Notes: a model not told the origin generated them from the sequence alone. 64,000 nucleotides of DNA from GCF_054482595.1 NZ_CM137008.1, one strand, 5' to 3'. Shown: positions 49,274 through 55,745, numbered from the stretch's first letter. Program-made: numbers and translations.

Positions 49274-51097
49274 TTAATCGTCTTTCGGTGCGCGGTTGGC
49301 GCGACGACGATCGTTTTCCGTCAGGTGACGTTTACGAATACGGATAGAGGTCGGGGTCACTTCTACCAGTTCGTCATCATCGATGAACTCCAGAGCTTGT
49401 TCCAGAGTCATGCGGATAGGCGGAACCAGAACAACGGCTTCGTCAGTACCGGAAGCACGCATGTTGGTCAGTTTCTTACCGGTCAGGCAGTTTACAGTCA
49501 GGTCGTTAGAGCGGCTATGAATACCGATAATCTGACCTTCGTAAACTTCTGCACCGTGACCGAGGAACAGCTTACCGCGATCCTGCAGACCGAACAGCGC
49601 GAACGCGACCGCTTTACCCTGACCGTTAGAGATCAGTACGCCGTTCTGACGCTGACCCACTTCACCCGGACGTACGTCGTCGTAGTGGCTGAAGGTGGAG
49701 TACAGCAGACCCGTACCGGAAGTCATGGTCATGAACTCAGAACGGAAGCCAATCAGACCACGGCTTGGGATCACGTAGTCGAGACGTACGCGGCCTTTAC
49801 CGTCTGGATTCATGTTTTTCAGGTCGCCTTTACGTTCGCCCAGCGCCTGCATCACAGAACCCTGATGCTGTTCTTCAACGTCCAGCGTCACGTTTTCATA
49901 CGGCTCTTGTTTACGACCGTCGATTTCACGGAAGATAACTTTCGGACGGGATACCGCCAGTTCGAAACCTTCACGACGCATGTTTTCGATCAGAACAGAC
50001 AGGTGCAGTTCGCCACGACCAGAAACGCGGAACGCATCGGCGTCTTCGGTTTCTTCTACGCGCAGCGCAACGTTGTGTACCAGTTCTTTGTTCAGACGAT
50101 CCAGGATCTGACGAGACGTTACGAACTTACCTTCTTTACCGCAGAACGGCGAGGTGTTAACGCAGAAGAACATAGAAACGGTCGGCTCATCAACGGAGAG
50201 TGCCGGCAGCGCTTCAACGTTTTGCGTGTCGCAAACGGTGTCAGAAATGTTCAGTTCGCCAAGGCCCGTGATCGCAACGATATCGCCAGCTTCCGCCAGA
50301 TCGGTTTCGATACGTTCCAGACCGAGGTGGCCCAGCACTTTACCGACTTTCGCGTTGCGGGTTTTGCCTTCGCTATCGATGATAGTGACCTGCTGGTTCG
50401 GCTTCACTTTACCGCGCTTGATGCGGCCAATGCCGATAACGCCAACATAGCTGTTGTAATCGAGCTGAGAAATCTGCATCTGGAACGGACCGTCAAGGTC
50501 AACGTCCGGCGCAGGAACGTGATCAACAATCGCCTGATACAGCGGGGTCATGTCTTCCGCCATATCTTCGTGGTCCAGACCCGCGATACCGTTCAGCGCA
50601 GAAGCGTAAACGATCGGGAAGTCCAGCTGCTCGTCGGTCGCGTCGAGGTTAACGAACAGATCGAATACCTGATCCACAACCCAATCAGGACGCGCGCCAG
50701 GGCGGTCAACTTTGTTGATAACAACAATCGGCTTCAGGCCGTAAGCAAACGCTTTTTTGGTTACGAAGCGCGTTTGCGGCATCGGGCCGTCAAATGCGTC
50801 AACCACCAGCAGCACTGAGTCTACCATGGACATTACACGTTCAACTTCACCACCGAAGTCGGCGTGCCCCGGGGTATCAACGATGTTGATACGGTAATCA
50901 TTCCATTTGATAGCGGTGTTTTTCGCGAGGATGGTAATCCCACGCTCTTTCTCCAAATCGTTGGAGTCCATCACGCGCTCTTGGGTTTCGGCACGAGAGT
51001 CGAACGTACCGGATTGTTGGAGCAGCTTGTCTACCAGGGTGGTTTTACCATGGTCTACGTGCGCGATGATGGCGATATTACGCAATTTTTCGATCAC
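49274..51097 (-). CDS. typA: Ribosome-associated translational GTPase BipA/TypA
   Basis: 607 aa, [26 protein letters not shown]...; EF-G-like G-domain. Confidence 0.95.
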
Positions 51098-51248
51098 AAC
51101 TTTGCCTCAGGCATTAGAAATAGCGCGTTATTGTACACGGATTAATCGCACTACAAAACAGGATCACAAACATCCTCCGCAAACAAGTATTGCAGAGTCC
51201 CTTTGTGATCGCTTTCACGGAGCATAAAAAGGGTTATCCAAAGGTCAT

Positions 51249-51297
51249 TGCACCAATATGGTGCTTAATGTTTCCATTGAAGCACTATATTGGTGCA
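51249..51297. promoter_or_regulatory. Tandem NtrC-binding sites (TGCACC-N5-GGTGCA type) upstream of glnA
   Basis: TGCACCAATATGGTGCT (51249..51265) and GCACTATATTGGTGCA (51282..51297). Confidence 0.75.
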
Positions 51298-51370
51298 ACA
51301 TTCACATCATGGTGCAGCCCTTTTGCACGATGTTAAGCATGATAACGCCTTTTAGGGGCAATTTAAAAGT

Positions 51371-51386
51371 TGGCACAGATTTCGCT
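51371..51386 (+). promoter_or_regulatory. Sigma-54 promoter glnAp2 (-24 TGGCAC / -12 TCGC)
   Basis: TGGCACagattTCGCT with canonical GG-N10-GC spacing, about 85 bp upstream of glnA ATG. Confidence 0.8.
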
Positions 51387-51469
51387 TTATCTTTTTTACG
51401 GCGACACGGCCAAAATAATTGCAGATTTCGTTACCACGACGACAATGACCAATCCAGGAGAGTTAAAGT

Positions 51470-52879
51470 ATGTCCGCTGAACACGTACTGACGATGCTGA
51501 ACGAGCACGAAGTGAAGTTTGTTGATTTGCGCTTCACCGATACCAAAGGTAAAGAACAGCACGTCACTATCCCTGCTCATCAGGTGAATGCTGAATTCTT
51601 CGAAGAAGGCAAAATGTTTGACGGCTCCTCGATTGGCGGCTGGAAAGGCATTAACGAATCCGACATGGTGCTGATGCCAGACGCATCCACCGCAGTGATT
51701 GACCCGTTCTTCGCCGACTCCACCCTGATTATCCGTTGCGACATCCTTGAACCTGGCACCCTGCAAGGCTATGACCGTGACCCGCGCTCTATTGCGAAGC
51801 GCGCCGAAGATTACCTGCGTTCCACTGGCATTGCCGACACCGTACTGTTCGGGCCAGAACCTGAATTCTTCCTGTTCGATGACATCCGTTTCGGATCATC
51901 TATCTCTGGTTCCCACGTTGCTATCGACGATATCGAAGGCGCATGGAACTCCTCCACCCAATACGAAGGTGGTAACAAAGGTCACCGTCCGGCAGTGAAA
52001 GGCGGTTACTTCCCGGTTCCGCCGGTAGACTCTGCTCAGGATATTCGTTCTGAAATGTGTCTGGTGATGGAACAGATGGGTCTGGTGGTTGAAGCCCATC
52101 ACCACGAAGTAGCGACTGCTGGTCAGAACGAAGTGGCTACCCGCTTCAATACCATGACCAAAAAAGCTGACGAAATTCAGATCTACAAATATGTTGTGCA
52201 CAACGTAGCGCACCGCTTCGGTAAAACCGCGACCTTTATGCCAAAACCGATGTTCGGTGATAACGGCTCCGGTATGCACTGCCACATGTCTCTGTCTAAA
52301 AACGGCGTTAACCTGTTCGCAGGCGACAAATACGCAGGTCTGTCTGAGCAGGCGCTGTACTACATTGGCGGCGTAATCAAACACGCTAAAGCGATTAACG
52401 CCCTGGCAAACCCGACCACCAACTCTTATAAGCGTCTGGTCCCGGGCTACGAAGCACCGGTAATGCTGGCTTACTCTGCGCGTAACCGTTCTGCGTCTAT
52501 CCGTATTCCGGTGGTTTCTTCTCCGAAAGCACGTCGTATCGAAGTACGTTTCCCGGACCCGGCGGCTAACCCGTACCTGTGCTTTGCTGCCCTGCTGATG
52601 GCCGGTCTTGATGGTATCAAGAACAAGATCCATCCGGGCGAAGCCATGGACAAAAACCTGTATGACCTGCCGCCAGAAGAAGCGAAAGAGATCCCACAGG
52701 TTGCAGGCTCTCTGGAAGAAGCACTGAACGAACTGGATCTGGACCGCGAGTTCCTGAAAGCCGGTGGCGTGTTCACTGACGAAGCAATTGATGCGTACAT
52801 CGCTCTGCGTCGCGAAGAAGATGACCGCGTGCGTATGACTCCGCATCCGGTAGAGTTTGAGCTGTACTACAGCGTCTAA
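51470..52879 (+). CDS. glnA: Glutamine synthetase
   Basis: 469 aa, [31 protein letters not shown]...; adenylylation-site Tyr region present. Confidence 0.97.
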
Positions 52880-52939
52880 TAGTTGAAGTTGTACTACCCG
52901 GCGCAACAACGCCGGGATTTAGTTGCCGTGGAAACTTTC

Positions 52940-52966
52940 AGCCCATCTCTGCATGGGCTTTTTTCT
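52940..52966 (+). terminator. Rho-independent terminator after glnA
   Basis: AGCCCAT-ctctgc-ATGGGCT followed by TTTTTTCT; a second weaker hairpin (CCCGGCG-caacaa-CGCCGGG) lies at about 52898..52917. Confidence 0.75.
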
Positions 52967-53014
52967 CCGTCAATTCTCTGATGCTTCGCGCTTTTTATCC
53001 GTAAAAAGCTATAA

Positions 53015-53031
53015 TGCACTAAAATGGTGCA
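53015..53031. promoter_or_regulatory. NtrC-type palindrome at the glnL promoter
   Basis: TGCACTAAAATGGTGCA overlapping a TATAAT-like hexamer (GCTATAATGCAC). Confidence 0.65.
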
Positions 53032-53052
53032 ACCTGTTCAGGAGACTGCTTT

Positions 53053-54102
53053 ATGGCAACAGGCACGCAGCCCGATGCTGGGCAGATCCTCAACTCGCTG
53101 ATTAACAGTATTTTGTTAATCGATGACAACCTGGCGATCCATTACGCCAACCCCGCCGCGCAACAACTGCTCGCCCAAAGCTCCCGCAAATTGTTTGGTA
53201 CACCGTTACCGGAACTGTTGAGCTACTTCTCATTAAATATCGAGCTGATGCAAGAAAGTCTGGAGGCGGGGCAAGGTTTTACCGATAACGAAGTGACGCT
53301 GGTCATCGACGGGCGCTCGCATATCCTTTCTGTGACGGCCCAGCGTATGCCGGACGGCATGATCCTGCTGGAGATGGCTCCGATGGATAACCAGCGCCGC
53401 TTAAGTCAGGAACAGCTACAGCACGCCCAGCAGGTTGCTGCCCGTGATTTAGTGCGCGGCCTGGCACATGAGATTAAAAATCCGCTTGGCGGTTTACGTG
53501 GCGCGGCGCAGCTGCTCAGCAAAGCGTTACCTGACCCATCACTACTCGAATATACCAAAGTGATTATCGAACAGGCGGACCGGCTGCGAAATCTGGTCGA
53601 CCGTCTGTTGGGGCCGCAGCTGCCCGGTACGCGCGTTACCGAAAGTATTCACAAAGTAGCTGAACGCGTGGTAACGCTGGTGTCGATGGAACTGCCGGAC
53701 AACGTGCGGTTGATTCGTGATTACGATCCCAGCCTGCCGGAACTGGCGCACGACCCGGATCAAATTGAACAGGTCTTGCTGAATATTGTGCGCAATGCGC
53801 TACAGGCGCTGGGGCCGGAAGGCGGTGAAATCATTCTGCGTACCCGCACCGCGTTTCAACTGACCTTACACGGCGAACGCTACCGGCTGGCGGCGCGGAT
53901 TGATGTGGAAGATAACGGGCCAGGCATTCCGCCTCATTTGCAGGATACGCTGTTTTACCCGATGGTCAGCGGCCGCGAAGGTGGCACCGGGCTTGGCTTA
54001 TCCATCGCTCGTAATTTGATTGATCAGCATTCAGGCAAAATTGAATTTACCAGTTGGCCAGGGCATACCGAGTTCTCGGTTTACCTGCCTATCAGGAAAT
54101 AA
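53053..54102 (+). CDS. glnL: Nitrogen sensor histidine kinase NtrB
   Basis: 349 aa; PAS domain, H-box ([14 protein letters not shown]), ATPase domain. Confidence 0.95.
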
Positions 54103-54113
54103 AGGTGACGTTT

Positions 54114-55523
54114 ATGCAACGAGGGATAGTCTGGGTAGTCGATGACGATAGTTCCATCCGTTGGGTGCTTGAACGTGCGCTCGCTGGAGCGGGTTTAACC
54201 TGTACGACATTTGAGAACGGCGCGGAGGTACTGGAGGCGCTGGCGAGCAAAACGCCGGATGTGCTGCTTTCAGATATCCGTATGCCGGGAATGGACGGGC
54301 TGGCACTGCTCAAGCAGATTAAACAGCGCCATCCGATGCTTCCGGTCATCATTATGACCGCACATTCCGATCTGGATGCTGCCGTCAGCGCCTATCAACA
54401 AGGGGCGTTTGATTATCTGCCCAAACCGTTTGATATCGACGAAGCCGTGGCGCTGGTTGAGCGCGCCATCAGCCATTATCAGGAACAGCAGCAGCCGCGT
54501 AATATTCAGCTTAACGGCCCAACGACCGATATCATCGGCGAAGCGCCAGCCATGCAGGACGTGTTCCGTATTATCGGTCGGCTTTCGCGTTCTTCTATTA
54601 GCGTGCTGATTAACGGCGAATCCGGCACCGGTAAAGAACTGGTCGCTCATGCCCTGCATCGCCACAGTCCGCGCGCCAAAGCGCCGTTTATCGCGCTGAA
54701 TATGGCAGCTATCCCAAAAGATTTGATCGAATCAGAACTGTTTGGCCACGAGAAAGGCGCGTTTACTGGCGCGAATACCATTCGTCAGGGGCGTTTTGAA
54801 CAGGCCGATGGCGGTACATTATTCCTCGACGAAATTGGTGATATGCCGCTGGATGTGCAGACGCGTTTGCTGCGCGTGCTGGCAGACGGTCAGTTTTACC
54901 GCGTTGGCGGCTATGCGCCGGTGAAAGTGGATGTGCGGATTATCGCTGCCACTCACCAGAATCTCGAACAGCGAGTGCAGGAAGGTAAGTTCCGTGAGGA
55001 TCTGTTCCACCGCCTGAACGTTATCCGCGTTCATCTGCCGCCGCTGCGCGAACGTCGGGAAGATATTCCCCGTCTGGCGCGCCATTTTTTACAGGTTGCC
55101 GCGCGCGAACTGGGCGTAGAAGCGAAGTTACTGCATCCGGAAACCGAAGCTGCTCTGACGCGTCTGGCGTGGCCAGGCAACGTGCGCCAGCTGGAAAACA
55201 CCTGCCGCTGGCTAACGGTGATGGCCGCCGGGCAGGAAGTGTTGATTCAGGATTTGCCCGGCGAACTGTTTGAATCAACGGTTGCGGAGAGTACTTCGCA
55301 AATGCAACCGGACAGTTGGGCGACGCTTCTTGCGCAGTGGGCAGACAGAGCGCTGCGTTCCGGTCATCAAAATCTGCTTTCCGAAGCGCAGCCAGAGCTG
55401 GAGCGGACGTTACTGACGACCGCGTTGCGACATACGCAGGGGCATAAACAGGAAGCGGCGCGGCTACTCGGCTGGGGCCGCAACACTCTGACGCGTAAGT
55501 TAAAAGAGCTGGGGATGGAGTGA
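54114..55523 (+). CDS. glnG: Nitrogen regulator NtrC (sigma-54 enhancer-binding protein)
   Basis: 469 aa from [19 protein letters not shown]...; receiver, AAA+ ([14 protein letters not shown]) and C-terminal HTH; ORF opens 20 codons upstream. Confidence 0.95.
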
Positions 55524-55634: not shown

Positions 55635-55745
55635 ATGCTGGAATCAATAATTAATCTGGTATCGAGTGGCGCAGTTGACAGCCACACACCGCAAACTGCC
55701 GTTGCTGCCGTGCTGTGTGCCGCAATGATTGGGCTGTTTAGTTGA
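55635..55745 (+). CDS. yshB: Small membrane protein (36 aa)
   Basis: GGGGAGAG RBS then ATG; product MLESIINLVSSGAVDSHTPQTAVAAVLCAAMIGLFS; below ORF-track size cutoff. Confidence 0.7.
   Translation: MLESIINLVSSGAVDSHTPQTAVAAVLCAAMIGLFS

Follow-up and report, generated by a model that had tools for sequence, protein, structure and literature searches.

Nitrogen-control elements and a probable O157-type GlnZ small RNA at an Escherichia coli glnALG locus

The glnALG control region is the textbook model of enhancer-dependent bacterial transcription, and its outlines can be read in a 64,000-nucleotide stretch of DNA (NZ_CM137008.1, assembly GCF_054482595.1; hereafter the window, meaning the whole stretch analysed). 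The locus raises two questions: are the apparent control elements upstream of glnA and glnL real or a chance reading, and does the glnA 3'UTR also encode a small RNA (sRNA), and of which form? A sequence-only reading had proposed two NtrC palindromes and a sigma-54 -24/-12 element upstream of glnA, a further NtrC-type palindrome over the glnL promoter and, as a possibility, an enterobacterial sRNA called GlnZ derived from the glnA 3' end. We find that the region very probably represents the standard glnALG nitrogen-control unit of E. coli, with an O157-type GlnZ inside the glnA 3'UTR, and that the whole published model very probably applies to it. Both the glnALG controls and GlnZ are already known, and neither is new here.

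The source is E. coli: positions 51100-53100 are 100% identical to many complete genomes and find a match in 5425 of the 5426 complete E. coli genomes, and the matching genomes annotate glnA followed by glnL. We identified the open reading frames with NCBIfam equivalog models (glutamate-ammonia ligase, NR(II) and NR(I)), each aligned over its full length (Table 1). The glnG product scores as the NR(I) equivalog, and the operon therefore encodes its own cognate activator.

Table 1. Features at the glnALG locus, with positions counted from the first base of the window
Feature	Position	Strand	Evidence
typA	51097..49274	-	
CRP site TGTGATCGCTTTCACG, upstream of glnAp1	51204..51219	+	one mismatch to TGTGA-N6-TCACA; identical to K-12
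High-affinity NtrC site 1, TGCACCAATATGGTGCT, one mismatch; overlaps the glnAp1 -35 region	51249..51265	+	consensus search
High-affinity NtrC site 2, AGCACTATATTGGTGCA, two mismatches; covers the estimated glnAp1 start	51281..51297	+	consensus search
Region of low-affinity ('governor') NtrC sites 3 and 4; TGGTGCA at 51310-16, TGCAC at 51324-28	51300..51340	+	K-12 alignment
glnAp2 sigma-54 promoter, TGGCAC-N5-TCGCT, TGGCACAGATTTCGCT	51371..51386	+	pattern search, K-12 identity, conservation
glnA, glutamine synthetase, 469 aa; parental mRNA of the sRNA	51470..52879	+	NF007006, 1048.6 bits, full length
glnA 3'UTR, predicted GlnZ of O157-type/Class I (= EsrF), 85 nt	52880..52964	+	100% identity to O157:H7; 85-nt length
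5' GC-rich hairpin CCCGGCG-CAACAA-CGCCGGG, 7 G-C pairs, -13.8 kcal/mol	52897..52916	+	RNA fold
GlnZ seed UUGCCGUGGAAA	52923..52934	+	exact match to the published seed, the sole one in the window
Rho-independent terminator: 7-bp stem AGCCCAT/ATGGGCT, 6-nt loop, U6	52940..52964	+	hairpin 52940-59, T6 52959-64; fold
glnLp -10 TATAAT (53010-15) with NtrC operator TGCACTAAAATGGTGCA, one mismatch (53015-31)	53010..53031	+	
glnL (ntrB), NR(II) sensor kinase	53053..54102	+	NF008293, 700.8 bits, full length
glnG (ntrC), NR(I), sigma-54 activator acting at the listed NtrC sites	54114..55523	+	NF008176, 1051.7 bits, full length

We searched all 64 kb for the NtrC consensus TGCACCAnnnTGGTGCA with at most two mismatches, and found just three sites: sites 1 and 2 upstream of glnA and the operator upstream of glnL. 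By chance 0.33 sites are expected at this threshold, and three were attained in only one of 100 shuffles. Relative to the estimated glnAp2 start, the centres of sites 1 and 2 fall at -140 and -108, the classical enhancer positions, and lie 32 bp apart, giving two dyads within the range of ~100-150 bp upstream of the promoter and three helical turns from each other. For comparison between species, we scanned one genome per species (GTDB) with a DNA pattern composed of the GlnZ seed plus terminator, which returned at least 120 loci; the comparison therefore covers motif-bearing genomes. Promoter tests were made on the 70 listed loci with 400 nt of sequence upstream of glnA. Among these matches, NtrC-like sites are present near -140 in 66 of 70 other species and near -108 in 64 of 70, and both positions are occupied (each within 3 nt) at 60 of the 70 loci, compared to none of 2100 shuffles.

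The sigma-54 element lies 99 nt before the glnA ATG, with the -24 GG at 51372-73 and the -12 GC at 51384-85, at the 10-bp spacing required of such promoters. The pattern by itself does not stand out in the window (5 matches versus 3.3 expected by chance), so the case for this element rests on its identity to K-12, its position and its conservation. It is base-for-base the same as K-12 glnAp2, and a sigma-54-like element with intact GG and GC is found at 70 of 70 orthologous loci among the matches listed, versus 2.6% of shuffles (54/2100). Counting 12 nt on from the -12 GC puts the transcription start at ~51397 (within ~3 nt), which agrees with a glnA leader of 73 nt.

The CRP site, NtrC sites 1 and 2, the sigma-54 element, the spacing between elements and the glnLp operator are all the same in the window as in the K-12 glnAp1/glnAp2/glnLp control region, the system of Reitzer and Magasanik and of Ninfa and colleagues, in which these elements were first described (PMC1865078, PMC3870243). 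The two control regions differ at six bases: 51257 in the spacer of site 1, 51444 in the leader, and, in the governor region, 51309 and three of the four bases 51333-36. None of these differences falls in a high-affinity half-site or in the -24/-12 element. The window's allele of the polymorphic governor region is carried by 2205 of 5426 E. coli genomes; the exact borders of the governor sites in Table 1 are presumably those of the older literature. The three-promoter scheme comprises two high-affinity and two low-affinity 'governor' NtrC sites (PMC3870243), and from the near-identical K-12 sequence, transcription needs rpoN and phosphorylated NtrC (PMC1865078, PMC3870243). The promoter glnAp1 lies 115 bp upstream of glnAp2, with a classical CRP site upstream of it (PMC1865078). 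This spacing would put the glnAp1 start at ~51282, inside NtrC site 2, and the CRP site is centred at about -70 from that estimated start. The CRP site and the low-affinity NtrC region are control elements that had gone without mention in the sequence-only reading.

Upstream of glnL, the first T of the palindrome at 53015-31 is also the last T of a perfect TATAAT, a layout that would suit autorepression of glnLp; NtrC is known to repress both glnAp1 and glnLp (PMC3870243). Among the matches listed, glnL follows glnA on the same strand at 113 of 114 loci, and an NtrC-like site (at most two mismatches) abuts a TATAAT or TATACT upstream of glnL in 79 of 113 other species. This conservation across species argues that the control architecture is real and not a chance reading. 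The paired palindromes upstream of glnA, the sigma-54 element and the palindrome over the glnL promoter are thus all present as the sequence-only reading had them, within the interval it had given, whose first and last positions (51249 and 53031) are the outer ends of the first and third NtrC sites.

The glnA 3'UTR begins directly after the TAA stop codon (52877-79). Its 85 nt are predicted to fold into a 5' hairpin, a largely unpaired stretch and a terminator (z-score of the whole RNA -2.3), and the seed within this stretch has a mean unpaired probability of 0.61. The terminator is invariant among the O157, O111 and K-12 UTR types, and together with its U tail it would supply the Hfq-binding module characteristic of GlnZ. 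Its energy is -9.5 kcal/mol, compared to -13.8 kcal/mol for the hairpin upstream.

Published work identifies GlnZ as an sRNA from the glnA 3'UTR with the seed 5'-UUGCCGUGGAAA-3' (Miyakoshi et al, 2022; PMC9731577). Three UTR types have been described in E. coli, with lengths of 197 nt in K-12, 85 nt in O157 and 230 nt in O111 (PMC9731577), and the short form, termed Class I, has been equated with the sRNA EsrF (Walling et al, 2022; bioRxiv 10.1101/2022.04.01.486790). By RACE, EsrF is exactly 85 nt long and starts at the T adjoining the glnA stop codon (Jia et al, 2021; PMC8092317); the 85-nt length and T-to-T ends of 52880-52964 agree with this mapping. A 201-nt glnA-glnL stretch, taking in the whole spacer, is 100% identical to O157:H7 genomes, and we found no sequence difference between the window and O157-type GlnZ/Class I/EsrF, which share the 85-nt length, a GC hairpin near the 5' end and a seed placed just before the terminator. 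Since every GlnZ sequence feature that we tested is present, we assign the RNA to the GlnZ family, and by its sequence it is predicted to be the O157-type/Class I form and not the ~194-197-nt GlnZ of K-12. The proposal of a 3'UTR-derived sRNA at this position was right; such an RNA was described in 2021-2022, this allele included, and the alignment to published GlnZ that had been suggested as a check returns the exact seed, the O157:H7 identity and the 85-nt length. The other suggested check, a northern blot under nitrogen limitation, is already in the literature for this sequence in O157 strains and was positive (PMC9731577; bioRxiv 10.1101/2022.04.01.486790). The sequence-only reading had also described a 3'UTR of 52880..52966 ending in a strong terminator. 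Its start and the presence of a terminator held up; the RNA most likely ends at 52964 and not at 52966, and 'strong' overstates a 7-bp stem that is weaker than the hairpin upstream of it and is best described as an ordinary intrinsic terminator.

The other forms of GlnZ differ from the window's RNA mainly in what surrounds the seed. K-12 GlnZ (~194-197 nt, Class III) has the seed (UUAGUUGCCGUGGAAACUUU), terminator, glnLp region and targets in common with the window, but its seed comes immediately after the stop codon and a long REP-derived stem-loop separates seed from terminator, whereas the window lacks a REP and has its seed preceded by a 5' hairpin. O111-type GlnZ (230 nt) has the same 5' part, seed and terminator as the window, but an insertion of 145 nt, which contains direct repeats of AGGTTCAAA, separates its hairpin from its seed, and it is one base shorter after GGAAA. 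In Salmonella GlnZ1 and GlnZ2 (Class II) and in Ysr49 of Yersinia (RF02766), the seed adjoins the terminator downstream of glnA, as in the window; the 5' part of the Salmonella RNA is longer and unrelated, and an additional G beside its seed alters aceE and deoD targeting (PMC9731577). Across 5426 complete E. coli genomes, a junction-specific query counted 2857 O157-type UTRs, and subtraction gave ~996 O111-type and ~1572 K-12-type UTRs.

How the 5' end of the 85-nt RNA arises is a point of disagreement in the literature. GlnZ has been described as a discrete RNA made under nitrogen limitation that needs RNase E and Hfq (PMC9731577; bioRxiv 10.1101/2022.04.01.486790). At the mapped 5' end, 52879/52880, a motif scan for RNase E sites gave no strict match to RN↓WUU, so the generation of the 85-nt end is not explained by sequence. 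RNase E-type motifs do occur at 52854-58, inside the coding sequence (109-nt product), and at 52916-20 (47-nt product). Judging by this second motif, cleavage at GA↓UUU after the 5' hairpin would release a 47-nt form consisting of seed plus terminator, for which the ~50-nt Salmonella GlnZ2 is an analogue.

A different origin and role have been proposed for EsrF, namely that the 85-nt RNA is transcribed independently from a promoter within the final part of glnA, repressed by NtrC and induced by high ammonium, and that it acts mainly by activating flhB through GGGAUUUAG, thereby promoting motility and virulence. In that work, EsrF was resistant to TEX and hence a primary transcript, its level was unchanged when the glnA promoter was deleted, it was expressed from a plasmid carrying the putative promoter, and it bound flhB mRNA in REMSA (PMC8092317). 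These results and the reported induction of EsrF by high ammonium (PMC8092317) contradict a model of processing at low nitrogen. The motif GGGATTTAG on which the proposal relies is present in the window at 52914-52922, but in the predicted fold the 5' hairpin and its extension take up five of its nine bases (52914-16, 52921 and 52922) in pairs. A consensus scan of the plus strand near 52840-52880 found no sigma-70-like promoter, which is weak evidence against the proposal. Two independent groups found O157-type GlnZ to be induced by low and not high nitrogen, using northern blots of O157 strains with the same sequence as the window (PMC9731577 Fig. 2C; Walling et al, Fig. 7C, bioRxiv 10.1101/2022.04.01.486790). 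In K-12, GlnZ was lost on deletion of the glnA promoter and a P_glnZ-lacZ fusion had minimal activity (PMC9731577; bioRxiv 10.1101/2022.04.01.486790), and PMC9731577 explicitly disagrees with Jia et al. We therefore consider a self-promoted EsrF with flhB as its main target to be very unlikely here.

It is also unlikely that either of two additions to the published model holds. One is a dual route, under which each of the conflicting reports would be partly right: the RNA would come from processing of glnA mRNA at low nitrogen and from an internal promoter at high ammonium; a single regulator would then couple nitrogen status both to control of the TCA cycle and glutamine transport and to flagellar motility. 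The other is co-variation of UTR type and governor allele by lineage, in which case the UTR type (O157, O111 or K-12) and the governor allele would together tune glnA and GlnZ output between phylogroups.

The processed GlnZ, induced by nitrogen limitation, that we favour would act on known targets: the O157-type RNA represses sucA, glnP and aceE (PMC9731577; bioRxiv 10.1101/2022.04.01.486790). We predicted duplexes between seed region 52917-39 and the K-12 leaders of sucA, glnP and aceE, and in silico the seed is complementary to all three published sites. Positions relative to the start codon and duplex energies are -48..-27 and -20.4 kcal/mol for sucA, -22..-11 and -18.4 kcal/mol for glnP, and -105..-91 and -20.8 kcal/mol for aceE. 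In 1000 trials each, shuffled seeds paired at least as strongly 18, 35 and 3 times, respectively, so that by energy alone the duplexes are only modestly better than shuffled seeds. The predicted pair between G52925 and aceE C-99 is the compensatory pair validated in K-12 (G12C/C-99G; PMC9731577), and changing U41 of the O157 form, which is U52920 here, to G weakens aceE control. In an O157:H7 genome, all three target regions show 100% identity; matches occur in no fewer than 5419 of 5426 E. coli genomes, the majority with an identity of 99% or more. We also paired the full-length 85-nt RNA with the whole leaders, and rejected the resulting long duplexes as meaningless: shuffled targets matched or beat their energies in 57 of 300 (sucA), 59 of 300 (glnP) and 11 of 300 (aceE) cases. 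For this reason, only the seed-region duplexes were used.

The seed region is also conserved well beyond E. coli. All of the listed loci belong to Enterobacterales, including Citrobacter, Enterobacter, Pantoea, Erwinia, Serratia, Yersinia, Pectobacterium, Dickeya, Brenneria and others. Of the 120 matches listed, 113 could be tested, and in every one of these the seed-plus-terminator motif lies 12-323 nt after the glnA stop codon and on the strand of glnA; in the other seven, the sequence ends before glnA could be placed. Among the matches listed, a conserved block surrounds the seed at ~52918-52939. It includes bases outside the search pattern, namely a GUU that precedes the seed, a U-rich run farther upstream and a CUUU that follows the seed, which are conserved in 73-100% of the listed loci, while the UTR further upstream is unconserved. 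Conservation of these unsearched flanks within an otherwise variable UTR is the pattern left when a seed is under constraint and the UTR around it drifts.

These data bear on another reading, in which the 3'UTR serves only in cis as a terminator or mRNA-stability element and its seed and target complementarity are incidental. The moderate advantage of the duplex energies over shuffles is compatible with this, and a cis role does exist, since deletion of the terminator slightly lowers GlnA in K-12 (PMC9731577). However, among the matches listed, which were picked by seed core and terminator, the 12-nt seed and its flanks are conserved well beyond what a terminator needs, published compensatory mutations show direct pairing between GlnZ and its targets (PMC9731577), and the window's sequence is identical to the O157 allele that was tested. 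We find a role exclusively in cis scarcely credible.

Taken with the published work, the elements described here suggest how the locus would operate as a nitrogen-responsive unit; our analysis establishes the DNA elements with their conservation, the O157 identity, the predicted fold and the target complementarity, and the literature supplies the steps of NtrC and sigma-54 binding, RNase E and Hfq processing, induction at low nitrogen and target repression. Under nitrogen limitation, phosphorylated NtrC would bind sites 1 and 2 and, through DNA looping, activate sigma-54 RNA polymerase at glnAp2. Binding at the same two sites would switch off the CRP-dependent sigma-70 promoter glnAp1, and the third NtrC site would repress the internal glnLG promoter, glnLp. 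Most glnA transcripts would then stop at the terminator, and RNase E with Hfq would free the last 85 nt as GlnZ, from which shorter processed forms may arise. The single-stranded seed (~52918-52939) would pair with sucA, glnP and aceE in their 5' regions and repress them, such that the TCA cycle would use less 2-oxoglutarate while glutamine synthetase is induced.

The practical value of these results lies in annotation. In the matched genomes, no RefSeq feature covers the sRNA, and Rfam 15 contains no GlnZ family. Automated pipelines thus overlook an RNA that essentially all E. coli genomes carry and that is widespread in Enterobacterales, and the UTR-type counts and the motif from at least 120 species could seed an Rfam-type model. 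The K-12 and O111 UTRs gave no Rfam match at E <= 0.01. The window's RNA matched RF02766 (Ysr49, from Yersinia) at 34.1 bits (E = 5e-4), below the gathering threshold of 95 bits, which rules out membership in Ysr49 as curated; a Yersinia locus likewise gave only a sub-threshold match to Ysr49. Ysr49 appears to be the Yersinia counterpart of GlnZ, because the seed and terminator are the only parts that align.

Among the matches listed from the Enterobacterales loci carrying the GlnZ seed-plus-terminator pattern (L009-L128, one genome per species), the seed lies at clustered distances from the glnA stop codon, namely ~12-25, 41-68 and 76-106 nt, with a tail extending up to 323 nt. The corresponding spacing in the window is 46 nt, including the GC hairpin. 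Because the distances are clustered, these data suggest that the seed-plus-terminator module is fixed, and that independent insertions have occurred repeatedly upstream of it.

Within E. coli, we aligned positions 301-646 of the glnA locus of an O111:H11 strain (L002) to window positions 52860-53060. The O111-type 3'UTR differs from that of the window by an insertion of 145 nt that carries AGGTTCAAA direct repeats and separates the 5' hairpin from the seed. The 145 nt is the total length difference that we measured between the two UTRs, compared to a published insertion length of 98 nt with AGGTTCAAA repeats on its flanks (PMC9731577). The insertion looks like a small mobile element with a target-site duplication. 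In the E. coli genome collection, two of the glnA-region matches belong to replicons that their records describe as plasmids and not as chromosomes; mislabelling or misassembly is the probable explanation.

We identified RNase E-type motifs at two sites (see table). Cleavage at the predicted downstream site would yield a 47-nt RNA comprising the seed and terminator, of which Salmonella GlnZ2 is the analogue, and cleavage at the predicted site within the glnA coding sequence would yield a 109-nt precursor.

Features identified around glnA in the window
Feature	Position	Strand	Details
ES222 sRNA match (Rfam RF02755)	51179-51286	-	Full-length; 133 bits vs gathering score of 62
RNase E-type motif (RN|WUU)	52854-52858		Within glnA CDS; predicted cut 52855/56
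RNase E-type motif (RN|WUU)	52916-52920		Predicted cut 52917/18
yshB	~55635-55745		Small membrane protein, 37 codons; just 3' of glnG; from annotation of identical reference genome

The match to the ES222 sRNA family lies between typA and glnA in the orientation of typA, where it starts within NtrC site 2 and covers both NtrC site 1 and the CRP site. A terminator-like hairpin (51197..51175) falls at the 3' end of the match, and the typA start lies 82 nt further on. The match could represent a fragment of the typA leader, or alternatively RNA transcribed divergently out of the enhancer region; a literature search on ES222 found no mention of it.

The low-affinity NtrC "governor" region of the window differs from that of E. 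coli K-12 at position 51309 (A in the window, G in K-12) and within positions 51333-51336 (51332-51337 read GTTAAG in the window, GGTGCG in K-12), with the latter change removing a TGGTGC-like half-site. Of 5426 complete E. coli genomes, 2205 carry the window's allele of this region, and O157:H7 is among them. At the other end of the operon, the annotation of the identical reference genome places hemN next after yshB, on the opposite strand.
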